In this document: positions 18,103-42,913 of the stretch, piece after piece
Layout: each line of letters opens with the position of its first letter
Position numbering within the stretch: the stretch's first letter is position 1
Sequence record: NC_105788.1
Origin: a phage
Length of the DNA: 49,689 nt
Direction: 5' to 3' (one strand)
Position numbers and translations under genes: made by a program
Notes under the pieces: generated by a model
Seen by the model: the letters and a program-made list of their open reading frames with translations, nothing else
What the model was told of the DNA's origin: nothing
Databases searched by the model: none

Positions 18103-19167
18103 TTACTTGTTTTGGTAGCGTACCCATGACGGCGTTTCAAGTTCGATCTCGCTTGCGTCGCCAGCGTATCCTGGCCAAACATCCATCTCAGAACAAGCCT
18201 TGTAAGTGTGGACAACGCTAACATACTGACTACGACCGATCCTGATTTGCTCCATAGTCATACGGTAAGCAAGTGCGATGTAAGGCTCTTTTTTCTCCTG
18301 CGCAAGCAATCGAACTACGATCGGGATATCTTCCGGGAAGTTTCCTTCAAAAGCGCCAGCTTGGATTGCACGTCGTAGCAGGTCATGCTGCAAGGCCATT
18401 TTAAGATAATACCCGTGATTGTATGCCAGTCTCGGGAACTCTAACGGGTTGGCGCTCATCGTGGTTTTGAAGTCAGTGATAATTAGCGCTTCAGGGAAAA
18501 TAACGTCTTCAAATACCGGATCGCCGTTATCATCATAACCAGTCAGTACGCGACCTGGTACATTCTCTTTGTAGTCCAAGTGATCGAGTCGAACCTTAAC
18601 CTTGACTCCGGATATTTCACCGAAGATTGAGATTTCACGCTGAGCCGTTTCACTGTTGATGCACGCTTCATGATCGGGGTTCTGTTCAAGTATAGCTCTC
18701 ATCTTCATGCAGGCGTCGTATTTATCAGCGTCTACGAGTTTCTTTCCTTCAGCACGCGCCTCAGCTTCTGCGATCAGTTCAATCAGGTATTGAACATTAA
18801 GGTCTTCGCCACAATCAACCATCATTTTGATGAGGTCCGGGTACTGCTTACCGGATGTACCTTTCAGGCCGAATGATTTTAATTTTGCTGCCAGCGCCGC
18901 CTGCGAAGTAATCAGATCCTTAAACTCTGCCGGAGCCGGGCAACGGGCATACGATGCAGTAAACAGATCTCGGCTCTCAAAGTTGGTATGCGACTGAGTA
19001 CCGAACTCCAGCGCTTTCGTTGTCTCATTCTTCTTGAATCGCCAGTTAGCCGGGCAAGTTTGATAGATTTCTGCAAGACTCGATCCGCTTACATACTCTG
19101 CCGCCCAACCTTCGTTACTATGATACTCGTCATTAGAAAGCTGACTTGATGTGAATACTTGGAACAT
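18103..19167 (-). CDS. recombination exonuclease (PD-(D/E)xK, RecE/YqaJ-like)
   Basis: PEALIITDFK PD-(D/E)xK-like motif; first gene of exo-erf-ssb module; AGGAGA RBS. Confidence 0.55.
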   Translation of the reverse strand: MFQVFTSSQLSNDEYHSNEGWAAEYVSGSSLAEIYQTCPANWRFKKNETTKALEFGTQSHTNFESRDLFTASYARCPAPAEFKDLITSQAALAAKLKSFGLKGTSGKQYPDLIKMMVDCGEDLNVQYLIELIAEAEARAEGKKLVDADKYDACMKMRAILEQNPDHEACINSETAQREISIFGEISGVKVKVRLDHLDYKENVPGRVLTGYDDNGDPVFEDVIFPEALIITDFKTTMSANPLEFPRLAYNHGYYLKMALQHDLLRRAIQAGAFEGNFPEDIPIVVRLLAQEKKEPYIALAYRMTMEQIRIGRSQYVSVVHTYKACSEMDVWPGYAGDASEIELETPSWVRYQNK

Positions 19168-19198
19168 TGCGTTTATCTCCTTCGTTTACGATGAATCC

Positions 19199-19226
19199 AT
19201 TATAGCCATTAACAGCGTTTAGTCAA
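19199..19226 (-). promoter_or_regulatory. near-consensus sigma70 promoter (TTGACT-16 bp-TATAAT) for recombination module
   Basis: read on minus strand about 30 nt upstream of exonuclease ATG. Confidence 0.6.
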
Positions 19227-19329
19227 TCGAATACATGTAATTGATGTGTAATTGCGTGTCTATATCGCTCAAGTTACAACCAGCATCAACGTAATCAATA
19301 GCTTAATCCTGTTTTTATGTGATGTCTAT

Positions 19330-19615
19330 TGCGTAACACTTGTAACCGCTTTTTCTTAGAAATACACAGATATCCATGAATAGAATCCCGATCGATTAAA
19401 TTTTGAGCATATATGATAGAAATTTGACGAATCAATCAAATCACCTGTTACACGATAGACAACTGTTACACAACAATAATTATATATATAAAGCTAAAAT
19501 TAAATATTATCTATCTATATGTATTATATAGAGTTTTTATCATATCTCCCTGCGGTCGGATGGGGTCGATTTTGTAACACCACCTCCAGTTACAAAAATA
19601 GACACCTGTTACACG
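19330..19615. repeat. AT-rich region with at least 5 copies of TGTTACA(C) / TGTAACA in both orientations
   Basis: read directly; divergent intergenic region between exonuclease and cor-like gene. Confidence 0.5.
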
Positions 19616-19635
19616 AAAAAATTGTAATCGGGCTA

Positions 19636-19664
19636 TTGCAATAAAAGTAAATGCGACATACAAT
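19636..19664 (+). promoter_or_regulatory. sigma70-type promoter (TTGCAA-17 bp-TACAAT) for cor-like gene
   Basis: read directly. Confidence 0.5.
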
Positions 19665-19693
19665 GCAATCACACTAACGACGAGGACATGCAA

Positions 19694-19921
19694 ATGAAAA
19701 AGTTAATCACCATTATCGCTGCGGCATTCATTCTGACTGGTTGCTCATCGATGCCTGAGCGCACTTGCACGGCAATTTATGAATCAGGTGGAGCGGAGTA
19801 CTCGGTTTACGTTTTTGGCTCTAAGATGCGCGGAAAGGAGATGGTATTGCGTGCTGGATACCCATTCTCCTTCAACTATGTATCAGAGAAAAACTTCAAA
19901 TCTCACGATTGCTCGATATAA
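19694..19921 (+). CDS. cor: Cor-like small outer-membrane lipoprotein (superinfection exclusion candidate)
   Basis: about 75 aa, signal peptide with lipobox LTGC; own promoter and terminator; position next to fibre genes matches cor of T1/phi80-type phages. Confidence 0.6.
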   Translation: MKKLITIIAAAFILTGCSSMPERTCTAIYESGGAEYSVYVFGSKMRGKEMVLRAGYPFSFNYVSEKNFKSHDCSI

Positions 19922-19943
19922 AAGAAAAGCCCCGCAAGGGGCT
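19919..19943 (-). terminator. intrinsic terminator (AGCCCC-TTGC-GGGGCT + T-run on minus strand)
   Basis: hairpin at end of late operon, shared with convergent cor gene. Confidence 0.65.
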
Positions 19944-20632
19944 TAGTCGTATGCTGCCGTTTTGATTGCTGTTATAATATTTCCATTATTCGTTGTGTTC
20001 ATTATCTGACCCGCCGCAGTGGTTGCTGCTGCATTTATTCTCGTTGTGCTCCCGTTGTACCTGCATGAACTTCCTGCTGTTGAGTTTCCTATTATTGGTT
20101 GCCCAGTTGGCAACCTACCAATAACAACTTGATAGTTGCCAAGTATAGTTGGAACAACCGCGTAGCTTCCGCTGAGTGTTGTGTCTATGTTTAATCCACC
20201 GCCAGCGTATCCAGGAGTGCCGATTGTAACCAAATCACTAAGGACTTTTGTCTCATTTGTCAGCACTAGCTTTCCTGACGCATCCCATATCGCCATACCC
20301 CAGCTCGGTAGTGACTGCTCAAATATGGCAAATATGTAATATGTTAGTGTGTATGATTGGTTTGCTGGATTTGTCCCCCTTATATAAACAGTTCCAACAT
20401 TGGGTCCACTTCTGAAAGTAAAGGCTGAAAGCGCGGTCCCCTGCTGCGTACTTGTTGTTTTGCAAAAAGCTATAACCGGAACACCTGTAGGTATCCGAAC
20501 ATATCTCTCCGCAACCTGTGAACCACTAACATTTACTGATTTAATTTCCCCTCTCGCATATAAAGCGAATGGCGTGGATAGCGGGGTTATGAATGGATTT
20601 CCGTTTACATCTATAAAAGCACCGTATGACAT
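19943..20632 (-). CDS. putative distal tail fibre / receptor-recognition protein (229 aa)
   Basis: last gene of late operon downstream of J; Gly/Thr/Asn-rich; shares a (A/S)IWDA(S/N)G motif with the preceding 101-aa protein. Confidence 0.4.
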   Translation of the reverse strand: MSYGAFIDVNGNPFITPLSTPFALYARGEIKSVNVSGSQVAERYVRIPTGVPVIAFCKTTSTQQGTALSAFTFRSGPNVGTVYIRGTNPANQSYTLTYYIFAIFEQSLPSWGMAIWDASGKLVLTNETKVLSDLVTIGTPGYAGGGLNIDTTLSGSYAVVPTILGNYQVVIGRLPTGQPIIGNSTAGSSCRYNGSTTRINAAATTAAGQIMNTTNNGNIITAIKTAAYD

Positions 20633-20937
20633 TAATCATTCTCCAGATATGCTATTAAGTAACAGTTTGATGATGGGTGCACGTTTGGCCCAGGTGAGTT
20701 TGCTGGCGTTACTGTTATCGTATTACCGCTAGCAATAATTTTCCTGCCAGGCCCACTAATGGCGCCATCGTCAAGGCTTATAACGTAGTTCACATGCATA
20801 CCAGGAGGCACTTGATAGCTGAACGATGCTGAATTCTGGCCTGCTGACAAAAAGTTCCAACCAACAACCGTGACAGGCTTAATCCCATAGTTATTATAAA
20901 CGCCATTTGCGTCCCAAGTTGATATACCGTACGCCAT
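20632..20937 (-). CDS. putative tail fibre-associated protein (101 aa)
   Basis: start at internal ATG with GGAGGA RBS; paralogous N-terminal motif with next gene. Confidence 0.4.
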   Translation of the reverse strand: MAYGISTWDANGVYNNYGIKPVTVVGWNFLSAGQNSASFSYQVPPGMHVNYVISLDDGAISGPGRKIIASGNTITVTPANSPGPNVHPSSNCYLIAYLEND

Positions 20938-20982: not shown

Positions 20983-23900
20983 TTACCATGAGCCAGTCAA
21001 CCTGCCAATCTGAACCCTAAGGCGACCACTCGCATCCCTAACAGATATTGTGGTATTGGTTTGCTTCATTGCACCCTCACCGTCACTTCCGTAGTTTTCA
21101 AATGTACCTCCCTTGTCAAGTCTCCAGCCAGCCTTGTTAACGACATAGTTATTCGATTGAATAACGTTACCAATCATCGCATTCGTGATGAATCCGTTCT
21201 TAATGATGGCACTATTAAGAATCACCTGATTACCTTCAACAACGAAAGGATACTGAGTCTGGCCATTCATTCCAGTCATGATTGCAAATCGTGACGCTTC
21301 GAATAGAATTTGCGCTTTAACCGCCGCGCCGGAACCAATCAGAGACATGGCCATGCCTGCGCTGTATTCCTGACCGTTATATTTCAGACCTAGCTTGACG
21401 CCGTACATTGCCCCAGTCGAATTAGCGTTACTCCATGAGTCTAATTTTTGAGCAAGTGCTGCCTCGTTATCTCCAAGCCTTGCGCTCAGCGTCAAGTCGG
21501 CTTGCGTTCTCGCCTCAGTTTCATTTGCGATAGCCTCGCGGATATCGGTCAAACTTGCCTGAATATCGTCACCAATCTGAGCCTTAAGCTGGTCAATCTC
21601 ACGCGATAAAGCCTCAGTTTCAGTTGCGATAACTTCACGCAGTTCGCTATTGCTTGCGCTAATCTGATCACCAAAACTTGCCCTCAACTGCTCAACTGCT
21701 GTTACTCGCGCCTGAGTCTCATCAGCAATTAGTTGCAGTGATTTGGTGTACTCTGCTTTTCGTTTTCCGTTCTCCTTCTTCATGTAGATCGCGTCTTTGT
21801 CATTAGCTAGTGCGTTCTCAATTGCTGCCTCTGCGTTCGCTGCGTTCTGCGACGCGTTGTCGGTTGCGTTATCAACAAGCCATTCGTAACCCGGCGAGTT
21901 TTCGATATCGACAGAAATCTCTCCGATGATATCGTCAACGTTTGTTGATGCCATGCCCCTGACAAAATCAGTCCACTGAGACACGTTACCGATCCTGTCA
22001 ACTGTCCTTACCCGATACCACACAATATTCCCTCCCGGCATCGGTGAGTGATAATACTCATGCTGCGGGTACGGAATCAAAGAAAGCAAACTTGCGTTAT
22101 CCACTGTTCCATCCGGTGACTGTTGCAACTCTGTATAGGCCGTATCTCCAGAACCATCAGAGAACCCCCATTTTGTACGGATACCAAAAACAACATCATC
22201 CGTAGCTGTAAGGTTAATCGGTCGGCCCGGCTCACCTTGTTTACCCGTCAGCGTCGCAGCTACGATATTTGACCATCCTGAAGTCGTACCGGAACCAGCG
22301 ACAGAGCGAACGCGAACCTGATAGTTGCCAGCGTAAATACCTTCAACGTATACCTCTTTATTTGCCGTCTGCGGTACATTTTGCCAGTTGCCGTTATCCT
22401 TTCGCCACTGGACGTCATAGAAAACTGCGTACGGCACTTTATCCCAGCTAACAATCATCGTTTCTACGCTCATCCCCTGGACGATTCTCGACTCTGAGGA
22501 CACTTGCACGTTTTCCGGTCTAGGGATCTGATCTGGTTCAACGATGCTCGTCGGTCGGTCGTCGATGTTAACTCCGTAATCAATCTCGTCGTACTTGTTA
22601 GGATCGTACTCCACCGCCGTGATTTTGTAGGTAAATTCCTCGTCATCATCGCCCTTATCGATTTTTGTCACGACGTACTGTTGTAGCGCAATGTCTGTGC
22701 GGTCGATAGCGAATACCGTGTTAGGCTTCACAGGAAAGCCAAAGCCAATGTTAACCTCTATAGTCTTACCATCCGCACTAACACTTGAGATTGTGCGCTT
22801 CACGGGCTTTCCGTCGGGCTTATTTACGATAATAAAGTCACCTGCGCGCGCATCCACACGGAACGGCAAGAAAATCTGGCTTCCAGACACTTCAAGCAAG
22901 CGCCCTGATAGGTTCATAGTCAAGTTGCTTGACCAGAAGTTGTCGGCTATTGCCACAACATCACCTATTGTCGGGATCATGCCCTCAAGCCCGGTCGCGA
23001 AGTTTACCGTAGTGCTGCGAAGGTTGGTCTTCAGAATCCATCGCCCTCGTCGGTTAGCCTCGCTTCGACGCGTGCAACCTATCGCTGTAATGCTGGTTAC
23101 GTTATTACCGAACCGCAGAGTCGCCTCACGATCGAATACTGGCTCAACGTCCTGTTGATACATGTTTTGTTCGTCGTCAAACATCACGTTACACGTCGTG
23201 TACATACTCTTTTCGCTTGCGAACGTATAGGAGAAGTCACCATTAACAACGTTGTCGTTAGTGAAGATGTACGCAGGCTCACGCGGTCTGTCGATGATTA
23301 CCGAGATGCTTTCACCATTCCAGAAGCTCATACCACGGAATATTGAGCAAATATCTCGAATCACCTTGTACGCATCAGTCTGTGACTGAATTATCACGTC
23401 GCAAAGGTAGCGAGGCTCCGTACCACCTTTCCCGTCGGGAACCATCTGGTCGCAATATTGCGCCGCCTCATAGAGCGCCCATTTATCGACGGAGATTCCA
23501 AGCTCCTTCTGATCCAGCCCGTAGCGCTGATTAATCATCAGGTCGTATAGAACCCATGCCGGGTTGTTAGTCCACGCCTTCTTGAAAGTCCCATCCCAAT
23601 TGCCGTTGTAGGTTCGTGATTCCGGATCGTAGTTTGATGGAACGTTTACAATCTTCCAGCGCTTACGAATTGAGATCGTAGGTAACTGGTTTGGGAACAT
23701 CTTCGAGTCGAACTCGACGAAAAGAAGACCTGTCAGAGGGTAACGGAATTTGGCATCAATCACCTCGGCATAGCTCTTTACTTGGATCGCATCAACAACG
23801 TTAGAGTCGTTAGAGTCTGGAGTCTTTCGAACAACTCTGAATATTACCTGACTGTTGAAGTTCGGAAGGTTTACGCGACGACTTCGATCGTAACCTGACA

Positions 23901-24402
23901 TTGTTTTGCCTTCGATTACATCGGTGAGCACCGTCTCAAACGAGCCACCATCAACAGCTTGTTGCACCTCGTACTCAACGCGAACGCCGTTTTTATCACC
24001 GTTACTTTCAATTCGCACGCCGCGAGGCATAAACATTTTGATGCGTATTGCCGATAGTGTTTTATTGGTCACTGAGATCGTGTAAGGGTTATCGGTAGTA
24101 ACCTCACGACTTACAGTTACCTCACTGGAACTATCTTCCATGCCCTTGATGTATTCCTGCGTCTGAGTTCCTGGCCTGAACTCAGCCTTTACTCCCTCGA
24201 AGTTAAATGAGCCATCCTCGTTTTGCACCGGGACTGAGTTAAACATCAACTGCTTTAGGCTGAATGTTTCGTCAATTTCACCATCAGATACAGCTAACAG
24301 GATCTTGATTTTGTTGATTGAGATTAGATTGTCTTCCATCTCAACTGGGTTATGAGGCTTCTGTGATCCACCTTTAGATCCACTTATCACTTTTTGAATC
24401 AT
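20983..24402 (-). CDS. central tail fibre / host specificity protein (lambda gpJ-like)
   Basis: N-terminus and internal blocks align by eye with lambda J (SKGG..NL.S...I..L.AVS.G.I.; SNYDPESRTYNGNWDGTFK; WALYEAAQYCDQMVPDGKGGTEPRY); 1139 aa. Confidence 0.9.
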   Translation of the reverse strand: MIQKVISGSKGGSQKPHNPVEMEDNLISINKIKILLAVSDGEIDETFSLKQLMFNSVPVQNEDGSFNFEGVKAEFRPGTQTQEYIKGMEDSSSEVTVSREVTTDNPYTISVTNKTLSAIRIKMFMPRGVRIESNGDKNGVRVEYEVQQAVDGGSFETVLTDVIEGKTMSGYDRSRRVNLPNFNSQVIFRVVRKTPDSNDSNVVDAIQVKSYAEVIDAKFRYPLTGLLFVEFDSKMFPNQLPTISIRKRWKIVNVPSNYDPESRTYNGNWDGTFKKAWTNNPAWVLYDLMINQRYGLDQKELGISVDKWALYEAAQYCDQMVPDGKGGTEPRYLCDVIIQSQTDAYKVIRDICSIFRGMSFWNGESISVIIDRPREPAYIFTNDNVVNGDFSYTFASEKSMYTTCNVMFDDEQNMYQQDVEPVFDREATLRFGNNVTSITAIGCTRRSEANRRGRWILKTNLRSTTVNFATGLEGMIPTIGDVVAIADNFWSSNLTMNLSGRLLEVSGSQIFLPFRVDARAGDFIIVNKPDGKPVKRTISSVSADGKTIEVNIGFGFPVKPNTVFAIDRTDIALQQYVVTKIDKGDDDEEFTYKITAVEYDPNKYDEIDYGVNIDDRPTSIVEPDQIPRPENVQVSSESRIVQGMSVETMIVSWDKVPYAVFYDVQWRKDNGNWQNVPQTANKEVYVEGIYAGNYQVRVRSVAGSGTTSGWSNIVAATLTGKQGEPGRPINLTATDDVVFGIRTKWGFSDGSGDTAYTELQQSPDGTVDNASLLSLIPYPQHEYYHSPMPGGNIVWYRVRTVDRIGNVSQWTDFVRGMASTNVDDIIGEISVDIENSPGYEWLVDNATDNASQNAANAEAAIENALANDKDAIYMKKENGKRKAEYTKSLQLIADETQARVTAVEQLRASFGDQISASNSELREVIATETEALSREIDQLKAQIGDDIQASLTDIREAIANETEARTQADLTLSARLGDNEAALAQKLDSWSNANSTGAMYGVKLGLKYNGQEYSAGMAMSLIGSGAAVKAQILFEASRFAIMTGMNGQTQYPFVVEGNQVILNSAIIKNGFITNAMIGNVIQSNNYVVNKAGWRLDKGGTFENYGSDGEGAMKQTNTTISVRDASGRLRVQIGRLTGSW
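21510..21710 (-). repeat. diverged tandem repeat of about 100 bp (33-aa coiled-coil unit) inside J-like gene
   Basis: GCCTCAGTTTCA(T/G)TTGCGATA recurs at 100-bp period. Confidence 0.5.
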
Positions 24403-31754: not shown

Positions 31755-32187
31755 TTTGCTGTCTCCTTGCCTGCTTGATTGCGTCAGCCATATATGATCT
31801 CAGCCTTAATGCCACAAGGCCGACAACGCCGCTCGGCGCTTGCTGTGAATGACCGTACTCAAGAGCGTTTGCATAAATCAACATGTTTGAAAAGTGAACT
31901 GATGTTATCGCGCCGCCACGGCTGAACATGCCATAAGTTTTAGCCTGCTCCTCACCTCTGACGACACCGCCAGTTTTATCGTATCGGTTTAATGCGTGGT
32001 TAGGGATTTCGTTAAAAGTTATCTGCCAGTTACCCTTGAATCGACCTGTATCAACAGGGGAGCGGCTAACAAGAGCGTCGTGAACATCCCTTACGAATAT
32101 CTCAATGGCATGTTCTAACGTGCTTTCAGCTGCCTTAATCCACGCATCAATCTCGCCTTGAAATCTACGAATCTGATAATTAGCCAC
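31744..32187 (-). CDS. tail completion protein (lambda gpZ-like), start uncertain
   Basis: position; start placed at GTG overlapping upstream stop after GGAGGG; ORF-track start would overlap upstream gene by about 100 nt. Confidence 0.4.
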   Translation of the reverse strand: MANYQIRRFQGEIDAWIKAAESTLEHAIEIFVRDVHDALVSRSPVDTGRFKGNWQITFNEIPNHALNRYDKTGGVVRGEEQAKTYGMFSRGGAITSVHFSNMLIYANALEYGHSQQAPSGVVGLVALRLRSYMADAIKQARRQQNAL

Positions 32188-32551
32188 CGACTGATACCCT
32201 CCGTAATACTGGACGATAGGCGACTGGTTCCAGTGACGCCTGAACCGGGCGAGCATCAACAACAACATGACGAATGCCATCAATCTCTATATAGTCACCT
32301 TCGTTTATTTCATGATCATTATTGAAGATCCCCAAAATATCTGAGGCGCGGATAGTTTCCCCATCAATCTCACGCGCGTTCGGTCTTCTCGTCGCGCCGG
32401 ATATTGGAATGACCTGTTCCATCGGTGGGATCTCGAATCCGTTTTCATCATATCCGTATTCACCTTGTTTTATCAGGTTCATAGGTCTTGACGGATCGGT
32501 GAAGAAAGCAACGCCTTTGCGAGCCATCCTTTCAATTTGTGAGTAGTTCAT
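32180..32551 (-). CDS. head-tail joining protein (lambda gpFII-like)
   Basis: position; internal ATG with GGAGGA RBS. Confidence 0.45.
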   Translation of the reverse strand: MNYSQIERMARKGVAFFTDPSRPMNLIKQGEYGYDENGFEIPPMEQVIPISGATRRPNAREIDGETIRASDILGIFNNDHEINEGDYIEIDGIRHVVVDARPVQASLEPVAYRPVLRRVSVGG

Positions 32552-32961
32552 TAGTGGCATCCTCCACGGAGTCCTGTCATTAATGCGAATCTACCACGGC
32601 GTCGCGCTTTAAGCTGTTCGAACATCTTACCCCACGGCGTCGAAAGCATCATGTTCCCTGACTGGTTCTTCGTAACCTCTCCGAAAGTCTGACTAAATTC
32701 ACCGCTCAGGGAGAATGACGTAACGCGTCGTGAGTACGATTCCAGATCCTCATCTTCACCTTTTAGCGCCCCGTCAAGGAAAGCAAGGTGCAATGCATAA
32801 AGAGCGAGCGCTTTGACGTATGCGTCTTTAAAGGTCTTCTGGCAGACGAATAGCTCAGCCATTTCTACCCACGCATAAAGCGTTTCGTCTGGAACCTTAC
32901 GAAGTGCCGGAACCAGCTTTCGCATTTGCTCAACAACTGCAATTAAAGTTTCTTGATTCAT
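32551..32961 (-). CDS. head completion / head-tail connector protein
   Basis: 136 aa, position between capsid and tail-joining genes. Confidence 0.45.
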   Translation of the reverse strand: MNQETLIAVVEQMRKLVPALRKVPDETLYAWVEMAELFVCQKTFKDAYVKALALYALHLAFLDGALKGEDEDLESYSRRVTSFSLSGEFSQTFGEVTKNQSGNMMLSTPWGKMFEQLKARRRGRFALMTGLRGGCH

Positions 32962-33005
32962 AACTTACCCCCATAAAAAAAGGCGCTACATGAGCGCCTT
33001 GATGA

Positions 33006-33293
33006 TTAATATTCGCCGCCGTCCTCAAGCTCTTTAACGCTTTTGCTATCCCACGGATCTGGCTTCGTGATCTTTGCCATTTCAGCACGGATTTTGCGGT
33101 TGGTTGCACTGTCGTCTTTAACTTCGATTTCTTCGCGAGCAATTAAGCAACGCAGGCCAGGCAAATCAAGAACGGACGCCGGAAGCGTGACCTCTTCATC
33201 TGGAAGAACTTTAGCAAAGGAGCCATCTTCAAGACGGAACATCTGAAGAGCTACACCAACGTTTACGATAACAACAGTTTTTTCTTTAGCCAT
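33006..33293 (-). CDS. hypothetical structural-module protein (95 aa)
   Basis: ORF track; GGAG RBS; directly after terminator following capsid gene. Confidence 0.5.
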   Translation of the reverse strand: MAKEKTVVIVNVGVALQMFRLEDGSFAKVLPDEEVTLPASVLDLPGLRCLIAREEIEVKDDSATNRKIRAEMAKITKPDPWDSKSVKELEDGGEY

Positions 33294-33306
33294 TTTGATT
33301 TCTCCA

Positions 33307-33335
33307 ATAAAAAAGGGACTAACTAAGTTAGCCCC
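33307..33335 (-). terminator. hairpin plus T6 immediately after major capsid gene
   Basis: AGGGGCTAAC-TTA-GTTAGTCCCT + T6 on minus strand. Confidence 0.55.
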
Positions 33336-33342
33336 TATAATA

Positions 33343-34302
33343 TTACACGCCAGTAATTAAGACAATAGTCATCGGGCGATAAATTGTAAGACCAGTACAC
33401 TTAGAGGTGCAAGGCACTTTGAAGTGCAAGTCTTTCGGCTGCGCTGGCAGCATGTTAAATGCTTCCGGGATCTCGATGGACATGTTCATCGGATTCTTTT
33501 CGTACACCAGCACACCTTTAGTGCCTGCGCCGTCGATATCCTCAAGCTCTGCGATAGAGTCGATTTCGATACCGGAGTTCTGAGACTTGAAATAGTCCAG
33601 ATAAGACATAGTAGTCTCAGGCATACGAATCGCCAAAACCTTACGCATGGAAGGCGGAATCAGGATGTTGGTTGCTCGGTGTTGGCCCCGAGTAATCGTC
33701 TCGATGGTTTCGATCGCTTGAGTTAGCTCAGCTTCCGCAGTTTCCGGCTTCATAGTAGATGCATCAATCCACTTACCGGAGGTAATTTTAGTGATGTTCG
33801 GATGGTTAAACACGGACACAATCTTGTGCGGTGCGGAACCTTTGAACACCAGGCGGTTAACAAGCTGATCATGCGCCAACTGGCACGCGCTCGCCTTACG
33901 GGTTGACAGTGGGCGACCAGTTGCCTGACCTGCTTTGATTTCGTCGATTGAGATCAGATACGCATTACCCAAACGGAACACCTTACCAAATTCAGAAGTA
34001 CCAAGCGCATCAACCAGAGGCAGGTCATCGGTATAGTCAGCGATAATCTGAGCAGTACCAACCTTATCAAAAGTCATGTACTCAAACGTCTTGTCGGTCG
34101 GAGAGAGTTCGGTTGTAACCGGGAATACTCGTAGTGCTGAGCCTACCGGATAGTCTTCTTCGTAAGACTGGCTTTTGATGCGGTGTAGTTCCTGAGCGGT
34201 CCAGATACCCATCGTTGCGGCTGCATCCTGTTTTACGCCAGCCTGGATCAGATACATTTCAACATTACTTTTATCTGCTTCATCAAATTTTTTAGTAGTC
34301 AT
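33343..34302 (-). CDS. major capsid protein
   Basis: 319 aa; lambda-like gene order (protease - decoration - capsid); GGAGAAG RBS; flanked by terminator hairpins. Confidence 0.7.
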   Translation of the reverse strand: MTTKKFDEADKSNVEMYLIQAGVKQDAAATMGIWTAQELHRIKSQSYEEDYPVGSALRVFPVTTELSPTDKTFEYMTFDKVGTAQIIADYTDDLPLVDALGTSEFGKVFRLGNAYLISIDEIKAGQATGRPLSTRKASACQLAHDQLVNRLVFKGSAPHKIVSVFNHPNITKITSGKWIDASTMKPETAEAELTQAIETIETITRGQHRATNILIPPSMRKVLAIRMPETTMSYLDYFKSQNSGIEIDSIAELEDIDGAGTKGVLVYEKNPMNMSIEIPEAFNMLPAQPKDLHFKVPCTSKCTGLTIYRPMTIVLITGV

Positions 34303-34323
34303 GATTACTTCTCCGTAGTTAAT

Positions 34324-34350
34324 AAAAAAGCCGTGATTATGTTCACGGCT
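34324..34350 (-). terminator. hairpin plus T6 upstream of major capsid gene
   Basis: AGCCGTGA-ACATAA-TCACGGCT + T6. Confidence 0.5.
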
Positions 34351-34356
34351 TCAATA

Positions 34357-34376
34357 ATAGCACTTTTTGTTAAAGC
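34357..34376. promoter_or_regulatory. conserved box (ATAGCACTTTTTGTTAAAGC, inverted relative to local genes)
   Basis: box copy between decoration-like gene and capsid gene. Confidence 0.5.
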
Positions 34377-34393
34377 GTCAAAGTGTTTTTATG

Positions 34394-35161
34394 TTATGCA
34401 TCAACCTCTGGAGTTGGCACTGCCTCTACGCGATAAGCAATGTTTGCCGTCGTCTTGCTGGCATCGTTAGCCGTCCAGGTAATATTGAAATCACCGACCA
34501 CCTCTCCACCAACAGGAGTTACAAGACCTGAGTCCGGATCGACAGTGGCGATATTGGTAGCGTCGATTGACCATCTACCAGTCTTATCGGTTGCATTAGC
34601 CGGAAGAGCATTAGCTACACACTGGATCGTAACATTGTTTGGTTGAGGACTTTCCTTGTCAGTGGTGATTGTAGCGGACTCAACAAGAACAACAGGTGGC
34701 GGCGGCGGTGGAACGATGAAAGCATTTTGTTTCACCTGAACCTCAATAATGTGCCCGTCTTCGTGCTTAACAAAGCCACCCGCAAAGGTCCAACCAACAT
34801 AATCATCAACTCCAGTTACTGAGCCTCCAGCGCCAAATTTAAGTTTTGAGAATAGTTCCGGAGCGTCACCAATAGAAGTAAGCGCCCACACGCGACCGTG
34901 AGAAACGACGTTGCACACTTCACCGTCAAGGATTTTACCGCTCAGGTGTTCATATTGGGAACGGAAAGCGATACCGTAAGGAGTTCCACCATCAGAAAGC
35001 GCCGTCACAACTTTTACACCGTCAACGATGCCGACAACCTGAACCGCTGAGCCGAACTCAATGTCACCTTGAGCCACACAAGCACCATCAATATTGTAGT
35101 CTGAAGTATCAGAAAGATTTCCCGGGCACGCCGGGCGCAACATTAAATTTTCGTAAGCCAT
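34394..35161 (-). CDS. capsid decoration-like protein with C-terminal Ig-like (Big_2-like) domain
   Basis: N-terminal 150 aa paralogous to 35221..35700 product; poly-Pro linker PPPPPP then Ig-like domain. Confidence 0.5.
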   Translation of the reverse strand: MAYENLMLRPACPGNLSDTSDYNIDGACVAQGDIEFGSAVQVVGIVDGVKVVTALSDGGTPYGIAFRSQYEHLSGKILDGEVCNVVSHGRVWALTSIGDAPELFSKLKFGAGGSVTGVDDYVGWTFAGGFVKHEDGHIIEVQVKQNAFIVPPPPPPVVLVESATITTDKESPQPNNVTIQCVANALPANATDKTGRWSIDATNIATVDPDSGLVTPVGGEVVGDFNITWTANDASKTTANIAYRVEAVPTPEVDA

Positions 35162-35175
35162 AATGATTTCTCCAT

Positions 35176-35205
35176 AAAAAAAGGACTATCCAAAAGGATA
35201 GTCCT
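35176..35205 (-). terminator. hairpin plus T7 between the two decoration-like genes
   Basis: AGGACTATCC-TTTT-GGATAGTCCT + T7. Confidence 0.55.
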
Positions 35206-35220
35206 TATATTAAATGCTAA

Positions 35221-35700
35221 TTACAGTTGATGCAACTGAACTTCTACAAGCTGAATATCTTTATATTTGGCAAAGCCGCCAGCATAAGTCCAGTTAGTAG
35301 TGATTGTTCCGTCAGATTTCTCCTTGCCGTCAACATCCAACTTAACCGCTGTTCCGAAAGTTGGCGCCGCGACAGATTTGGAAAGCATCCAAACTCGACC
35401 GGATGTAATTACGTTGATAGCACCGCCCTCTTCATAAACCATCTGACCTTGAGAGTTAACAGTTTGCCAGTGAGATCGAATTGCCACGCCGTAAGGATAT
35501 TTTTCCGCTTCCATAACCTTAACAAGTTTATGACCGTCAACCGCTTGCGCTGCGACAACCTGCACGGCAGCTCCAACCAAAACATCACCCCCTACACTAA
35601 CGACGCAAGCGCCGTCAACGTTGTATTTAGAGGTATCCGAAATCATGCCCGGGAGGGCGATCGCCATGTCGCGCTGATAAGATGCGTTAATCTGTGCCAT
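35221..35700 (-). CDS. capsid decoration-like protein (paralog 1)
   Basis: shares motifs with 34394..35161 product (DTS.YN.DGACV; GRVW.L; AGGF.K); AAGGAG RBS. Confidence 0.5.
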   Translation of the reverse strand: MAQINASYQRDMAIALPGMISDTSKYNVDGACVVSVGGDVLVGAAVQVVAAQAVDGHKLVKVMEAEKYPYGVAIRSHWQTVNSQGQMVYEEGGAINVITSGRVWMLSKSVAAPTFGTAVKLDVDGKEKSDGTITTNWTYAGGFAKYKDIQLVEVQLHQL

Positions 35701-35711
35701 GATATTTCTCC

Positions 35712-36824
35712 TTACATTACTTTGCTTAAACGTGAATTTGGCGTAACAGGAGCGGCGTCGTTTTTCTCTTCCGGCTTACCGCCTTCGATAGAGTCGCCTT
35801 TTACTGCTTTACGCTGAATAGCCATGATATCAGAATCTTTAGCAACATCAAACATAGCGTCGATATATGCGTCTGATTTTTCACTAACATCTTTATCAAG
35901 CATGGCTTTAACTACGGCAATCTTGACGTCTTTGATATCAAGACCATCATGTTTGACGCCTGCGGTTTCTGCTACTGCGGTAACTTCTGCGCGTGCGGCG
36001 GCATCGGCTTTTTGCTTCTCTACCTCTGCCTTCACAAGTTCCGGCAGAGAGTCAACCTTAACCTTCAGCGCATCGCGCTCAGCTTCGAAGCCATCAGCTT
36101 TCCCCTGAATGGTGGCAATCTGCGCGGTTAATTTTTCGATATGGTTCGCAACGTCTTCGGTTACTTCCACATCAACTGAGTCGATCTTAATTTTTTTCAT
36201 TTGCTTGTCCTCGTTAGTTAATTGAACGTTATTATCATACGGGAACTCCTGTTCGGCATCAAGATTTAATTTAGCAATTCCCGCACGACCTTTAAAAACT
36301 AGGGCAATATGGTTGACCTTGATATTAGTTTGTACCGCGTCGAATTTCACCCAACCTTCAGGCGGCGCTTCGTCCTGTTTCATATCCTCTTCGAAGATAT
36401 ATTCTCCAGTCTCATTTGAACCCCAGCCGGGCTTATCAATATCTACCGACGTATACCCTACAGATAATTCCCCGGCCTCCTTCGCTTTAGCTTTGCTGAT
36501 CGCGTAGTCGCTGTAAATACTCAAAGGAACTTCAACGCCAACCCCTGAAGCAATACCAGCGCCAGCACACGATCCGACAACAACGTCCTTAGCATTTTGG
36601 GGTGTCACCGTTACGTGACCGACTGTTATCGGCTTGCCTGCAAAACTTTGCAAGGAATCTTGCTTGAAAACTTCGGACGCCGGACGGAACTCAACTCGAT
36701 CGCCGTGAGGCGTTTTGTAAACCTGAGCGCCGATTCGCGCCACGATTGGGCGGTCAACTAAAAAACCGTTATCATCAAAGTGAGCCTTGATTTTTACTGA
36801 ATCGAATCTTTGCTTTGCCTTCAT
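35712..36824 (-). CDS. prohead protease / scaffolding protein
   Basis: position between head morphogenesis and decoration/capsid genes; coiled-coil Lys/Glu/Ala-rich C-terminal half; start at internal ATG with AGGAGA RBS. Confidence 0.55.
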   Translation of the reverse strand: MKAKQRFDSVKIKAHFDDNGFLVDRPIVARIGAQVYKTPHGDRVEFRPASEVFKQDSLQSFAGKPITVGHVTVTPQNAKDVVVGSCAGAGIASGVGVEVPLSIYSDYAISKAKAKEAGELSVGYTSVDIDKPGWGSNETGEYIFEEDMKQDEAPPEGWVKFDAVQTNIKVNHIALVFKGRAGIAKLNLDAEQEFPYDNNVQLTNEDKQMKKIKIDSVDVEVTEDVANHIEKLTAQIATIQGKADGFEAERDALKVKVDSLPELVKAEVEKQKADAAARAEVTAVAETAGVKHDGLDIKDVKIAVVKAMLDKDVSEKSDAYIDAMFDVAKDSDIMAIQRKAVKGDSIEGGKPEEKNDAAPVTPNSRLSKVM

Positions 36825-36826
36825 TT

Positions 36827-37588
36827 TTAATCTCCTGTAGAAAAGTCTGGAACAGCCCAACAGCGGCAGTTGTATTCTTCACCCGGGAATACGTGATCGG
36901 AATCTACCGCTATGCGCTTACCTTCCCATCTTACATGTTTTTCACGTTCGCGTAAATCCATCACCCCGCGCCAGAAATAGTAAGATACACCAGCGTCTTT
37001 TATGCGCTGCCGCATCAGTCTACTGTTCCAGGTTCCGACAATTCCCGACGCTCTATTTTTGGCCCAGCTACGGTAAATACCAAATCGCTCCTTAGCAAGT
37101 TCAACAACAAAATCCTTGCTTTTACCCTGACCGGATGCCGCACGAAGTTTATCAGTGAAATCAGTAACCATGTTGGCGGCAAATTTCCTGATAGAAGTAG
37201 TCACCTGCGATCGCCACAGATTATATTGTCCTGAGTACCAGCTTTCGGCAGCGGTAGGACCAATCAGGGCAAGTAGCATCACAGCTTGATTCTTCTTACC
37301 TCCAGAATTGCGAGCGATGCGCAGCCACTGCTTAGAGTTGAATTTATAGATCGCGAGCGCAACGGATGATAGAGAACCAATAATCGGAGCGATGAGTGAT
37401 TCGACGTAATCAAGCAATGACCTTTCTGCCTGATCTATCTCTTCGTCGGTAGCGTCAAATTTCATCGGCTTTAATTCGTCACGCATTTTTTCAGTTAGTT
37501 TGGCTGCAACATCCTGTAGGGAGCGCGACATTGCGCGCTCGCTCATTTCAGGATAGCGCCACTGTGTTGCAACGCCATTAATTTTCAT
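36827..37588 (-). CDS. head morphogenesis protein (Mu gpF / SPP1 gp7-like minor capsid protein)
   Basis: position directly after portal; GGGGGGAAG RBS. Confidence 0.55.
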   Translation of the reverse strand: MKINGVATQWRYPEMSERAMSRSLQDVAAKLTEKMRDELKPMKFDATDEEIDQAERSLLDYVESLIAPIIGSLSSVALAIYKFNSKQWLRIARNSGGKKNQAVMLLALIGPTAAESWYSGQYNLWRSQVTTSIRKFAANMVTDFTDKLRAASGQGKSKDFVVELAKERFGIYRSWAKNRASGIVGTWNSRLMRQRIKDAGVSYYFWRGVMDLREREKHVRWEGKRIAVDSDHVFPGEEYNCRCWAVPDFSTGD

Positions 37589-38861
37589 TTTCTAACTTCC
37601 CCCCTAATCCCGGCTCCGGCTCGGTTGTTTCTTCAGGTTCGCGAATGTTGATGTTATTTCCATCCTTGAGTTTAAACTCAGGGGCAATAGATCGCAACGT
37701 GTCGCGAGCTTCTTCCAGATCGATGATTTGCTCAGTGATAGCCTTTGTGACTGACTCAACGTTATTCTTCGTGATCTCTGATTCCTCTTTCTTACTCGGA
37801 ACAGACAAAGGCTCAAACTCGATCGACCACTCTTCCTCATCAACAATGAACGGCAACAAGAACTCAAGAAGCGGCCTGTAATCTTCCTCGCGTTTGCGAT
37901 CGACTAGCTTATAGAAAGTCTCAAGTGCTGTGTTTTGGCTCGCTGATACGCCGCCTACGTTCTTGTTCTTAATGATAATCTCATGAATCCCGGATAGGGA
38001 GACGATGCGATCCATCTTGCTTGACAAGAACTCAGGAACTCCGCTGATATCAGAGTTGAGAACGTCATATTCCTCAGTCTCAGCATCAATACCGATCGCA
38101 CGGCCTACGCCGGAGTTATCATCAACCTGAGCAAGTCGCAGTCGCGCGGCATACTGAGCGTCATCATCATCACACATTTCAGCAAGACCTTTGACCTTCC
38201 ATACAGCCTGTTGCTTACGTCGCAAGATCTGAGTAGCCAGAGATTCACAGTAATCATAGTCACAGATTGCATCAATCAGTGACTTGTTCAATACCGAAGC
38301 TCCCCATCCTTGATTCTGCTTTCTTGCCTGTTGCGTTACTCGTTCACCATCAGCAATAAAGACTCTTGAGTGATGAATCAGATACGGCTGCATATTGTCG
38401 CCAGGGGATACCTTGTAAATTTCAGGCTCACCATAGCGAGGGGATCTTGCATTGGTGACTCGCTTTTCAACAGTGATAGCAAATCGATCGTAAACTCGGA
38501 CGCCTTCAAGTTTAGCTCCAGGCTTTGCCTGACTGGTTAACATCCGGTTGTCTTTGATGATTGCAACCATCGCCGCGCCACCGTAAAGTCGCGCCCAACA
38601 AAGAAGATCCACCAGACTTGAATCAAGTTTGTAGCTATCCCATAAAGACTTGAACTCTTTTTCATCCTTAACGCCTGACATTTTAAAACCAGCCGTCACC
38701 ATCTCTTCCGGGATAACATCCACAATTCGCTTCGCGGTTGCGTTGTCGTTGTAGAAAGAACCGACGTGATATGATGCATCAGACATAAAGAATGGCTTAG
38801 GCGATCCATCTGCACCGCCGTTAAAAATATCGTTATATCCATCATGTTTAACAATTTTCAT
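37578..38861 (-). CDS. portal protein
   Basis: position directly after TerL; about 427 aa; acidic C-terminus; start at internal ATG with GGAGGAAAC RBS. Confidence 0.65.
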   Translation of the reverse strand: MKIVKHDGYNDIFNGGADGSPKPFFMSDASYHVGSFYNDNATAKRIVDVIPEEMVTAGFKMSGVKDEKEFKSLWDSYKLDSSLVDLLCWARLYGGAAMVAIIKDNRMLTSQAKPGAKLEGVRVYDRFAITVEKRVTNARSPRYGEPEIYKVSPGDNMQPYLIHHSRVFIADGERVTQQARKQNQGWGASVLNKSLIDAICDYDYCESLATQILRRKQQAVWKVKGLAEMCDDDDAQYAARLRLAQVDDNSGVGRAIGIDAETEEYDVLNSDISGVPEFLSSKMDRIVSLSGIHEIIIKNKNVGGVSASQNTALETFYKLVDRKREEDYRPLLEFLLPFIVDEEEWSIEFEPLSVPSKKEESEITKNNVESVTKAITEQIIDLEEARDTLRSIAPEFKLKDGNNINIREPEETTEPEPGLGGKLENEN

Positions 38862-38872
38862 GTTTCCTCCAA

Positions 38873-38899
38873 TAAAAAGGGCCGTCAATTGACAGCCCT
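38873..38899 (-). terminator. hairpin plus T5 between TerL and portal genes
   Basis: near-palindrome GGGC(T/C)GTCAATTGAC(G/A)GCCC + T5. Confidence 0.4.
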
Positions 38900-38915
38900 G
38901 ATTATATCTCATTTA

Positions 38916-40484
38916 TTACCGCTTAACCATCCCGGCGAGTCGCTTCATTCGCTCGATAGGATCGTCAATTGTCAGTAATTCGATATTCGCCGCATCCATG
39001 AAGTTATCGACGATATCATCATGCGGGTGAGTGTCATCGTAAGTGAATGCGCTGTGTTCCGCGATAATTTCCGCAAGCATGGGGTGCTCTTCTGGCAGAA
39101 CCACGCGCCCGGCTTTAATAACTGGCTGGGCGTCCATAGCTCGGGTAACTTTGTCTTTGTTACGCTGCAATGGAGTGATGGATATCGGAGTCTTTTTCCT
39201 TAGATTCTGGATTAAGCCCGTACCGCTCGCCTTATCTTCCACATAGATTTTACGAAGCACCCCCATTGATTTATTGTGCCTCCATGCCTGGTTGACGAAA
39301 GCGGTAAATTGCTTCTCCATATCCGGCGCTTCCCACTTTCCGCGAATGCCGTCGATAAAGTAAACCTTATCATTCTTCTTGCCCCACAAACAAAATACCG
39401 TGTAGTCGTTTAGCTCGCCTGTCTTCTGAGCGGTATCGGCAGTGATGAATCGGTAATCATATTTACCCGGATCTGGCTCGTCAGCGTCAAGGCTACTGCC
39501 GTAATAAGTCCACCACTCTGAGTTAAACACGGAGCCACCCAGCGCGATCGGCTTCTGCTGATACTGAGAATCAAAGGTATACTGATCTGCTTCTCGTAAA
39601 GCTAGCAGGTCGTGCACACTTTCCTTGCTGGGCCAAAAAGAGTAATGCTTAACGCCATCCAATTCTACATACTCAGACGATAAAACATCACGAGCAAAGT
39701 AAGGCTGTAACCAATCAGGAAGTGTCTTTCCGTATTCTTCCGTCACCAGCGCCGGGATTGAGATTTGGTCAAACTCAATACCCATCCCGCCATTCATCAT
39801 GAACCAGGTTGAATCCTGAGCATGTAGTCGTTGCTGAATTGCAATAATAGGCGTCTCGTTATGCATACGACGGGATCGAATGGTGTTTTTCAATAGCATG
39901 TGCGTACGCTCACGCTTAACCTTTGAGAACATATCATCAGGCTTGTCGATATCGTCTAGCATTACCATCCCCGAGAATCCCGGCGTCATGTAGCCACCAC
40001 GCGAACCAGTAATACGACCGCCAGCCGCTGCGGATATCAACTCAAACCAAACCTTTCCATCTTCGTTAAGAACCTGCATCTCCTCATCTTTCGATGTACC
40101 GAACTTGCAAGGCCATAGCTCTTGAAATTCGTTGCTGCTGATAATCTCACGGACGCGCTTACTGTTACGCTTAACCAGGCTGTCAGCAAACGACACGTTA
40201 AGGTTTCGCACCTTCTTACACTTAAGCATTGCGTATACCGGAAGGTGAATTGAGAACACTTCAGTTTTACCGGAACCCGGCGTGACGTTAAAGATAGTGT
40301 TGCCGCGTCGGCCTGCAATTATTTCCTCCACTTCGTGACATAGGTAAAGGTGATGCCAGTTAGGCTGGAACTGCTGCGCCTGCATAAGCTGGAACCAGAT
40401 CCGAATCATTTTTTCGAAATTGGCCTCGCTCATTTTCTTGATCGCTAACTTCTGCGTTGCGTTAAGGTCTTCCCATTGAATCAT
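38916..40484 (-). CDS. terminase large subunit
   Basis: Walker A-like TPGSGKTE and Walker B-like VMLDDIDK followed by nuclease-like C-terminal half; start at internal ATG with GGGAGA RBS. Confidence 0.85.
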   Translation of the reverse strand: MIQWEDLNATQKLAIKKMSEANFEKMIRIWFQLMQAQQFQPNWHHLYLCHEVEEIIAGRRGNTIFNVTPGSGKTEVFSIHLPVYAMLKCKKVRNLNVSFADSLVKRNSKRVREIISSNEFQELWPCKFGTSKDEEMQVLNEDGKVWFELISAAAGGRITGSRGGYMTPGFSGMVMLDDIDKPDDMFSKVKRERTHMLLKNTIRSRRMHNETPIIAIQQRLHAQDSTWFMMNGGMGIEFDQISIPALVTEEYGKTLPDWLQPYFARDVLSSEYVELDGVKHYSFWPSKESVHDLLALREADQYTFDSQYQQKPIALGGSVFNSEWWTYYGSSLDADEPDPGKYDYRFITADTAQKTGELNDYTVFCLWGKKNDKVYFIDGIRGKWEAPDMEKQFTAFVNQAWRHNKSMGVLRKIYVEDKASGTGLIQNLRKKTPISITPLQRNKDKVTRAMDAQPVIKAGRVVLPEEHPMLAEIIAEHSAFTYDDTHPHDDIVDNFMDAANIELLTIDDPIERMKRLAGMVKR

Positions 40485-40523
40485 GATTAAGTCTCCCATG
40501 TGGGCGCTCGCGCGCCCGTAACG

Positions 40524-41048
40524 TTAAAGCATGTCAAGAATGCTATTTACTGCCTCTTTCATTGCATCCTCAGTAGTGGCGACTACTGTCGATGCGGAAG
40601 CTGACGAGTTTTCGATATTGATTGAGGCTGGCTTATCGATTCCGAGATCCTTACCGATAAAGGAGGCATTAATAACACCGTTGGCGGCAAGCTGGAATTT
40701 TTGCTCGTTGATTACCGATTCCACAAACTCCATAACCTCACTGTATTCTTCCTCTCGCTTCCACTTAATGATTGCGGCCTCGCTTGCACCGATGAATAGT
40801 CGGTATCCGGTCCAGGTGAAGACTCGCGGCTTATGAACTAGCGATTCATAAACGCCACCCTGAAAGCTGGCTGATTCTGACGCCTTGATTGCGTTGTCCT
40901 CAGCCCATTCGAAATACTTAACTGACAGATCGAATAGTTGCTCAGGCGTCATTGCCCGGTTTTTAGCAAGAACAGTGCCGAACTTTTTCTTGTATAGCTC
41001 TTTGAAATTACCTCCATGGACTACTGGGGCGTTCTTAGGTTCACTCAT
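40524..41048 (-). CDS. terminase small subunit
   Basis: position immediately upstream of TerL; start at internal ATG with AAGAGGA RBS. Confidence 0.55.
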   Translation of the reverse strand: MSEPKNAPVVHGGNFKELYKKKFGTVLAKNRAMTPEQLFDLSVKYFEWAEDNAIKASESASFQGGVYESLVHKPRVFTWTGYRLFIGASEAAIIKWKREEEYSEVMEFVESVINEQKFQLAANGVINASFIGKDLGIDKPASINIENSSASASTVVATTEDAMKEAVNSILDML

Positions 41049-41063
41049 AAATCCATCCTCTTT

Positions 41064-41089
41064 GTTTAACATTTAGTGCTATTTTACCA
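41064..41089 (-). promoter_or_regulatory. box copy (ATAGCACTAAATGTTAAAC) overlapping an extended -10 (TGGTAAAAT) upstream of TerS
   Basis: read directly on minus strand. Confidence 0.45.
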
Positions 41090-41101
41090 TATTGCAGGCA
41101 T

Positions 41102-41123
41102 AAAAAAACCCGCCGAAGCGGGT
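41102..41123 (-). terminator. intrinsic terminator (CCCGC-TTCG-GCGGG + T7) at end of minus-strand early arm
   Basis: GC hairpin plus T7. Confidence 0.65.
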
Positions 41124-41132
41124 TAGTATTTA

Positions 41133-41360
41133 TCACGATAATCGTCGTTTAATGCCTTTAGGGTGGGTCTGAGCTTTAGAGTAGCAGTGAGCAAGGTCGC
41201 CAGTCATTTCCCATTGATCCTTCTTAGGCGAGTAGGTCAGCCATACACCAGTTTTATCCTTCGCGTCCATCGCAATTGCTGCCGCCACAAGTGCGAAGCC
41301 AGCAAACAAACCAGCACCAAAAATAATGACACCAGCGATAATCAATAAAAAAATTGTCAT
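41133..41360 (-). CDS. small membrane protein (75 aa)
   Basis: N-terminal hydrophobic helix IFLLIIAGVIIFGAGLFAGFALVAAAIA; AAGGAG RBS. Confidence 0.5.
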   Translation of the reverse strand: MTIFLLIIAGVIIFGAGLFAGFALVAAAIAMDAKDKTGVWLTYSPKKDQWEMTGDLAHCYSKAQTHPKGIKRRLS

Positions 41361-41361
41361 G

Positions 41362-41547
41362 TTAAATCTCCTTGATTAATTCAATATTTATTTTGTGAGT
41401 GTCAAGGTTAGCGCCGGAAAGTTTTTTTGCTTTCGTGATGGCTTCATCCTGACTGGTTGCTGATAATTCAGTTTCGAAAGATTGCTTGCACGACTGGCAA
41501 AACATTCCCATCTTTCGAATAATTAATTTAACCTTGAATCGCTTCAT
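41362..41547 (-). CDS. hypothetical protein (61 aa)
   Basis: ORF track. Confidence 0.4.
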   Translation of the reverse strand: MKRFKVKLIIRKMGMFCQSCKQSFETELSATSQDEAITKAKKLSGANLDTHKINIELIKEI

Positions 41548-41689
41548 CTTCCTGGGCCTTAATCATAACGCCAGCAATGCGACCAATTACAGCCTCGCCG
41601 GGATTTAATCGCTTTTTATAACGAGTTGTTTTACCGTTGCGAGTTACTTTAATTTCAATTTTGACTGTTTCATCTTTAGTGTTTTGCAT
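41528..41689 (-). CDS. hypothetical small protein (53 aa, below ORF-track cutoff)
   Basis: manual translation MQNTKDETVKIEIKVTRNGK...; AAGAGGA RBS; coordinates approximate. Confidence 0.35.
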   Translation of the reverse strand: MQNTKDETVKIEIKVTRNGKTTRYKKRLNPGEAVIGRIAGVMIKAQEDEAIQG

Positions 41690-41853
41690 TATGCAATCCT
41701 CTTGAATTTTTGCCGCTTACGGGTCTGCGGAGTTGCTTAACCACTATGCAACCGAGCTTTTTAGCTGGAAGTGTGAGAATCGTCTCACGCGTTGCGCTTA
41801 GTTGCGCCTCGTCTGTCTACGGGATTAATACTATCACCGCTCAGGGATGTAGG

Positions 41854-42837: not shown

Positions 42838-42893
42838 TTCGATTTTCTCTCTTCGTTGTCGATGAGGTAACTATATCAAGTCACCCCACCGAC

Positions 42894-42913
42894 GTTTTAG
42901 CAATTCGTGCTAT
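42894..42913 (-). promoter_or_regulatory. conserved box (minus strand ATAGCACGAATTGCTAAAAC)
   Basis: box copy overlapping TAG stop of kinase gene. Confidence 0.6.

Follow-up and report, generated by a model that had tools for sequence, protein, structure and literature searches.

The cor gene of the T1-type phage CLB_P3 as part of a receptor-specificity locus

Between the exonuclease operon and the tail genes of a T1-type phage lies a short gene that runs against its neighbours on both sides. Its position raises the questions of what it encodes, which signals would drive and end its transcription, and whether it belongs to the tail locus that it adjoins or stands free of it. We examined the gene in a window of 49,689 nt (the whole stretch of DNA analysed here, to which all positions refer). 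A sequence-only reading of the window had put forward a Cor-like lipoprotein, and sequence comparison shows that this is essentially right: the feature is the cor gene of the virulent siphophage CLB_P3, an ordinary gene and one already described.

Identity of the gene and of its product

The 601 bases spanning the cor locus are 100% identical, by sequence comparison, to Escherichia phage CLB_P3 (OL770108.1), and the DNA of the locus is about 96.5% identical to that of phage T1. The final 11.7 kb of the window corresponds to CLB_P3 positions 32092–43781 with zero mismatches, and the two coordinate systems are offset, such that position 19400 of the window (49689 nt) equals position 13492 of the CLB_P3 record (49721 nt) and window position 49689 equals record position 43781. 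The offset coordinates and the mismatch-free match together identify the window as a circular permutation of the genome of CLB_P3, a T1-type virulent siphophage (Tunavirus, Drexlerviridae) with E. coli 55989 as its isolation host.

The coding sequence of cor runs from 19694 to 19921 on the plus strand, begins MKKLITIIAAAFILTGC and comprises 75 codons and a TAA stop, in agreement with the curated T1 record. A Shine–Dalgarno sequence, GAGG (19682–19685, plus strand), lies 8 nt before the ATG at 19694, and the T1 record has a ribosome binding site at the same place. The program-made list of open reading frames gave a longer version of 77 aa that starts two codons earlier, at 19688. We rejected this start because GAGG would be only 2 nt away, and the ATG at 19688 reads ATA in T1, JMPW1 and Sfin-3; the spacing of GAGG and the lack of the upstream ATG in these three phages make 75 aa the right call, the length that the sequence-only reading had given. 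In an alignment of the cor locus of five Tunavirus genomes, 32 of the 228 columns of the coding sequence vary, and 25 of these 32 fall at codon position 3, as expected of a real gene under purifying selection. A chance open reading frame is rejected on this third-position variation in the five genomes and on conservation down to 33% identity in 36 homologues. Transcription opposite to the flanking genes, also claimed earlier, is borne out: the recE-like exonuclease gene from the list of open reading frames (18103–19167) and the gene for a 229-aa protein (19943–20632) both lie on the minus strand.

Several comparisons place the protein in the Cor family. First, it is 100% identical to T1 Cor (orf30, AAP49969.1), which the T1 record names "lysogenic conversion protein Cor". 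The two loci also share the promoter hexamers, the ribosome binding site, the 3′ hairpin and the neighbouring genes; apart from lacking the extra in-frame ATG at 19688 and differing by a few intergenic substitutions, T1 departs from CLB_P3 in nothing of substance. Second, the curated equivalog NCBIfam NF047972 (phage exclusion lipoprotein Cor) scores 55.8 bits (cut-off 31) over residues 1–73 and profile positions 1–76 of 78; in addition, the PHROG 1119 family (Cor superinfection exclusion protein) matches with an E value of 3.3e-30. Third, identity to the Cor proteins of phi80 and N15 is 33–37%; phi80 Cor aligns at 37% over the full length and has in common the lipobox, two further cysteines and the motif RAGYPF. 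Across the 36 homologues, Gly16, Cys17, Cys25, Gly55, Tyr56, Pro57 and Cys73 are invariant, and Cys25, Cys73, Gly55, Tyr56 and Pro57 are common to phi80 and N15 Cor as well. The Pfam family PF24052 (Phage_lipoprotein, the Rtp45 type) was rejected, with 17.7 bits against a cut-off of 27, mostly from the signal peptide; Rtp45 itself scores 125.5 bits. That the gene is a cor orthologue is close to certain. The earlier wording, Cor-like, thus understated an identity to T1 Cor that the search against known Cor proteins, which it had proposed as a check, makes explicit.

The Cor proteins of the temperate phages phi80, N15, HK022 and mEp167 belong to the same family, above the cut-off, with similar length and with the lipobox, the two further cysteines and RAGYPF. 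For such temperate-phage homologues, exclusion of FhuA-dependent phages and inactivation of FhuA transport have been reported (PMC9586334; bioRxiv 10.64898/2026.03.26.714494). We found no direct experiment on the T1 cor allele in the literature searched, where statements about T1 Cor cite the homologues of phi80, N15, mEp167 and HK022.

A lipoprotein signal peptide occupies residues 1–16 and is followed by Cys17 (19694–19744, plus strand). The N-terminus consists of MKK, an 11-residue hydrophobic core and the lipobox LTGC at residues 14–17 (encoded at 19733–19744, with the Cys17 codon at 19742–19744). The Pfam model LPAM_1 matches at its threshold (20.1 bits against a cut-off of 20), a lipobox regular expression also matches and Cys17 is invariant in the 36 homologues, all in keeping with the lipoprotein signal described in the sequence-only reading. 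An aspartate at position +2 retains a lipoprotein in the inner membrane. In Cor the residue at +2 after Cys17 is serine, which predicts sorting to the outer membrane. From these features we infer export, lipidation at Cys17, cleavage and Lol-dependent sorting of Cor to the outer membrane.

Predicted fold and mode of action

The mature domain (58 aa, encoded at 19745–19918 on the plus strand) is predicted to be β-rich and contains RAGYPF together with Cys25 and Cys73 (mature Cys9 and Cys57). An AlphaFold2 model built with 36 homologues has a mean pLDDT of 84.4, with values above 90 for residues 21–75. The solved structure that superposes best on it is FhuA-bound Llp of phage T5 (8a60_B), with a TM score of 0.63 (normalised to Llp) and an r.m.s.d. 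of 2.7 Å; the superposition covers 59 columns at 20% identity, its Foldseek E value is a weak 0.19, and small barrels of the Tudor-like type reach comparable scores. A search of the PDB with the Cor family profile also finds Llp, at an E value of 3.8e-5, with only the signal peptide and about 25 mature residues (the first strands) aligned. As to homology to Llp, for which the sequence-only reading had proposed a search, the profile reaches Llp through the N-terminal half only, and identity in the structural alignment is about 20%. In BFVD, a library of viral structures, the top matches are Cor and T5-like lipoproteins.

The likeness extends to the cysteines and to the biology of the phages. 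T5 Llp (8A60 chain B, 7QJF) likewise comes from a virulent siphophage that depends on FhuA and is a small lipoprotein of the outer membrane, and a disulfide between Cys11 and Cys58 links its two ends at positions that correspond to Cys9 and Cys57 of mature Cor, where we propose a putative bond. The llp gene differs in its genome context, adjoining the unrelated receptor-binding protein pb5, and direct binding to FhuA is proven for Llp but only modelled for Cor. Llp binds the periplasmic face of FhuA, keeps the plug non-native and makes the loops EL7 and EL8 fold across the site at which phage binds; the same paper anticipates a similar action for Cor (PMC9586334). An AlphaFold 3 model of a close Tunavirus Cor with FhuA places Cor on the periplasmic side with an ipTM of 0.84 (PMC13164509), and the predicted structures of Cor and Llp have been judged to form one family (bioRxiv 10.64898/2026.03.26.714494). 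Taken with the fold predicted here, these models make it probable that Cor acts by direct, Llp-like binding to FhuA.

Exclusion by Cor could also be indirect, passing through several abundant outer-membrane proteins or through TonB coupling and not through binding of the FhuA plug. A 2018 study by Arguijo-Hernandez and colleagues reportedly points this way, its title suggesting an indirect Cor route through other outer-membrane proteins. The T5 preprint calls the mechanism of Cor not elucidated (bioRxiv 10.64898/2026.03.26.714494), and both the low identity to Llp and the confinement of the profile match to the N-terminal half leave room for a different action. The indirect route is nevertheless unlikely, given that the predicted fold superposes best on Llp in its FhuA-bound form, that the putative disulfide is equivalently placed and that cor co-occurs across phages with receptor-binding alleles of the FhuA type (PMC13164509; PMC8594841).

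Transcription signals around cor

The sequence-only reading gave cor a promoter of its own, and the sequence elements are present exactly as described. A candidate sigma-70 promoter lies at 19636–19664 on the plus strand, with TTGCAA (19636–19641), a 17-nt spacer and TACAAT (19659–19664), from which transcription would be expected to start near 19671. The hexamers match the consensus at 9 of 12 positions and are by themselves not significant, as matches of this grade occur five times in the 1-kb region, where shuffled sequence gives an expectation of 4.2. It is conservation that lends support: across the five Tunavirus genomes, only 2 of the 58 columns from the −35 hexamer to the ATG vary, against 70 of the 469 remaining intergenic columns (Fisher p = 0.014), and both hexamers are invariant in T1, JMPW1, Sfin-3 and ADB-2. 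No other stretch of the locus is as constrained, and this speaks for a functional promoter and leader in the segment. A stronger match upstream, TAGACA-18-TGTAAT (10 of 12, ending 65 nt before the ATG), was set aside. Its −35 hexamer reads TATACG in T1 and is thus not conserved there, for which reason we keep TTGCAA-17-TACAAT as the main candidate; cor may have tandem promoters. We found no usable transcriptome or promoter-mapping data for T1-type phages in the literature searched.

Upstream of the candidate promoter lies an AT-rich intergenic region (19168–19635) from which the exonuclease operon and cor diverge; the 526 nt that separate the exonuclease gene from the cor start codon (19168–19693) have a GC content of 34%. 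The strongest promoter match in the region points away from cor. This candidate exonuclease promoter, TTGACT-16-TATAAT (19226 to 19199, minus strand), matches the sigma-70 consensus at 11 of 12 positions and lies 32 nt upstream of the exonuclease gene.

The same region is rich in short repeats. Seven of the 21 GTTACA/TGTAAC hexamers in the window cluster at 19268–19620, where 0.22 would be expected, in an array that includes CACCTGTTACACGA twice (at 19442 and 19603) and CAACTGTTACACAA (at 19460). T1, JMPW1 and Sfin-3 retain the full set of seven sites and ADB-2 retains six; the equivalent region has five hexamers in Sd1, three in Rtp and none in Hanrivervirus. The cluster may be an operator or iteron array, with binding sites for some factor, placed between the divergent candidate promoters of the recE operon and of cor. 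About 40 nt upstream of the −35 hexamer of cor there is, in addition, a perfect inverted repeat, TTTTGTAAC-N10-GTTACAAAA (19570–19597). Its arms are identical in CLB_P3, T1, JMPW1 and Sfin-3, with one substitution in the right arm in ADB-2 (GATTACAAAA), and its 10-nt spacer differs among the five phages. Conserved arms around a varying spacer look like the pattern expected of a protein-binding palindrome and not of an RNA hairpin.

Small open reading frames of 41–46 aa at 19295–19435 (minus strand) and 19403–19644 (plus strand) are annotated differently between records, the T1 record having one 46-aa minus-strand coding sequence there and the CLB_P3 record three on the plus strand. In two Rogunavirinae phages, Shigella phage Sd1 and MM01 (about 645–750 of each compared locus), a small open reading frame precedes cor on the same strand; its predicted product is hydrophobic and about 34 aa long (MTNLTTNVISAIFGVAVTGFFVWVLLLASNFNGF), and the frame stops 14 nt short of the cor start.

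Downstream of cor lies the terminator that the sequence-only reading called bidirectional; it is a clear intrinsic terminator for the tail-gene strand only. A GC-rich hairpin, AAGCCCC-TTGC-GGGGCTT (19927–19944), forms seven pairs with about −13.5 kcal/mol on either strand, but only the minus strand has a T-run 3′ of it (19917–19926, TTCTTTTATA); after the hairpin the cor strand reads AGTCGTATG, which has no T-run. A terminator scan reports the hairpin for the minus strand alone, and in the curated T1 record it is assigned to the strand of the tail genes only. The position of the T-run identifies the hairpin as the intrinsic terminator of the tail and receptor-binding operon. In the Hanrivervirus counterpart, the hairpin has T-runs on both sides, and there the idea of a bidirectional terminator holds. 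Among the relatives compared, the stem is invariant and the loop (19934–19937) reads GCAA, GGAA or GAAA on the cor strand, a GNRA tetraloop in every one of them. These loops hint at additional selection on the hairpin, as a structure that gives the cor RNA a stable 3′ end.

cor within the receptor-specificity locus

The tail genes that cor meets head-on at this hairpin are not fibre genes in the usual sense. The convergent gene at 19943–20632 (minus strand) encodes a 229-aa homologue of T1 orf31 and of phi80 and N15 gp23 (52% identity to phi80 gp23; PHROG 425). It is preceded by a gene for a 101-aa protein (start MAYGI; 20632–20937, minus strand) homologous to T1 orf32 and to phi80 and N15 gp22 (56% identity to phi80 gp22; PHROG 557), and upstream of both lies the gene for a J-like tail tip or host specificity protein of 1139 aa (20983–24402, minus strand), assigned from the list of open reading frames and from the CLB_P3 and T1 annotations. 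The sequence-only reading had placed cor next to fibre genes, and this is correct insofar as cor adjoins gp23-type and gp22-type genes downstream of a J-like gene.

The order J, gp22, gp23, cor is common to phi80 and N15, and the gp22-like and gp23-like genes travel together with cor in T1-like phages, Dhillonvirus, phi80 and N15. In the temperate phages, too, cor follows the gp22 and gp23 homologues downstream of a J-like gene, and the presumed target is FhuA. The difference lies in orientation. In phi80 and N15, cor reads in the direction of the tail genes, begins after a 111-nt gap behind gp23 and is expressed from the prophage. In CLB_P3, as in other small siphophages that are virulent, the gene is inverted so that it converges on the tail operon, and it is served by the divergent intergenic region, which looks early. 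We observed the inverted arrangement, with cor convergent with the gp23-type gene, in every virulent relative compared (Tunavirus, Wilsonroadvirus, an unclassified Rogunavirinae phage, Hanrivervirus and Dhillonvirus); in these relatives the inverted cor is fed from an AT-rich region common to the divergent neighbouring operon.

The contents of the locus are known to follow the receptor. Its alleles downstream of gpJ match the terminal receptor without exception (PMC8594841; bioRxiv 10.64898/2026.04.02.716166), cor and the two-gene cassette are found in FhuA-dependent phages (PMC13164509), and the literature regards the small proteins encoded 3′ of gpJ as the bona fide receptor-binding module for FhuA. 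Rtp uses LptD, and there the slot between the J module and the recE operon is filled instead by rtp45, the gene of another lipoprotein. Rtp45 (PF24052; PDB 9RPS chain D), an LptD exclusion factor of a Drexlerviridae phage, has the same size as Cor, is likewise a lipoprotein transcribed against the J gene and follows a similar logic of inactivating the receptor from the periplasmic side (bioRxiv 10.64898/2026.04.02.716166). It differs from Cor in belonging to another sequence family, in targeting LptDE and in being co-transcribed with its own receptor-binding gene.

These observations bear on whether cor is a moron, as the sequence-only reading had called it: a free-standing, independently mobile unit of promoter, gene and terminator, unrelated to the neighbouring tail genes. 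Such a unit would fit the conserved promoter candidate, the opposite orientation, the hairpin at the 3′ end and a function dispensable for growth. The co-travel of the gp22-like, gp23-like and cor genes argues against it, as do the occupation of the slot in Rtp by a different lipoprotein gene beside a different receptor-binding gene and the published match of locus alleles to receptor specificity. Moreover, the GC content of cor (44%) is at the level of the genome (46%), and the cor genes of Sd1 and MM01 come second in a two-gene unit, after the small open reading frame, with no promoter directly upstream of them. We therefore consider a free-standing unit quite improbable. The label of moron fits only loosely, since the phage is virulent and there is no prophage expression. 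With the slot swapped in Rtp, the alleles matched to the receptor and the cor and two-gene cassette present in FhuA-dependent phages, cor is more aptly seen as the half that provides exclusion within an exchangeable receptor-specificity locus located 3′ of gpJ.

A more speculative possibility gives the inversion itself a regulatory role. Since the cor strand has no proper terminator and cor would be driven from a region dense in conserved GTTACA sites, its transcripts might read through the hairpin and run antisense to the receptor-binding and tail genes early in infection, and a phage or host factor bound at GTTACA might time a switch from cor and recE to the tail genes; we regard this as a long shot. 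Least credible is another lipoprotein role for the gene, in lysis, tail assembly or host physiology, such that the annotation as Cor would be untrue for virulent T1-type phages: the literature searched held no direct experiment on the T1 allele and the tested proteins, those of phi80 and N15, are only 33–37% identical, but the match to the curated equivalog is full-length and above its cut-off, none of the conserved cysteines, the motif or the cassette context is missing and the T1 lysis genes, a separate spanin included, are located elsewhere.

Cor as an exclusion factor directed at FhuA would work as follows. Host sigma-70 RNA polymerase would start cor transcription at the gene's own promoter, within the AT-rich stretch from which the recombination operon diverges, a location that would make cor independent of the opposing late tail operon. 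The 75-aa precursor would then be exported, lipidated on Cys17 and cleaved by signal peptidase II, and the resulting 58-residue β domain, stapled by the putative disulfide, would bind the periplasmic face of FhuA, the receptor of T1. FhuA would thereby be locked in a state that receptor-binding proteins cannot use, as structurally shown for T5 Llp, and the infected cell and its debris would no longer adsorb T1, T5, phi80 and similar phages. For a virulent phage, the presumed benefit is that the infected cell is protected and that progeny are not lost on debris (PMC11990801). We infer the use and timing of the cor promoter, the direct binding to FhuA and the exclusion phenotype. To the explanation as a whole (cor identity, own promoter, lipidated export and an Llp-like block of FhuA) we assign a probability of roughly 0.8.

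The gene, its name, its family, the link to FhuA, the similarity to Llp and the place in the receptor locus are all already published: cor was annotated in the 2004 T1 genome and is treated in recent structural and comparative papers. For CLB_P3, a cor-type lipoprotein together with gp22-type and gp23-type genes 3′ of gpJ is a marker that predicts FhuA as the terminal receptor. The same marker predicts that CLB_P3-infected cells would be refractory to other FhuA-dependent phages, which is relevant to the design of phage cocktails.
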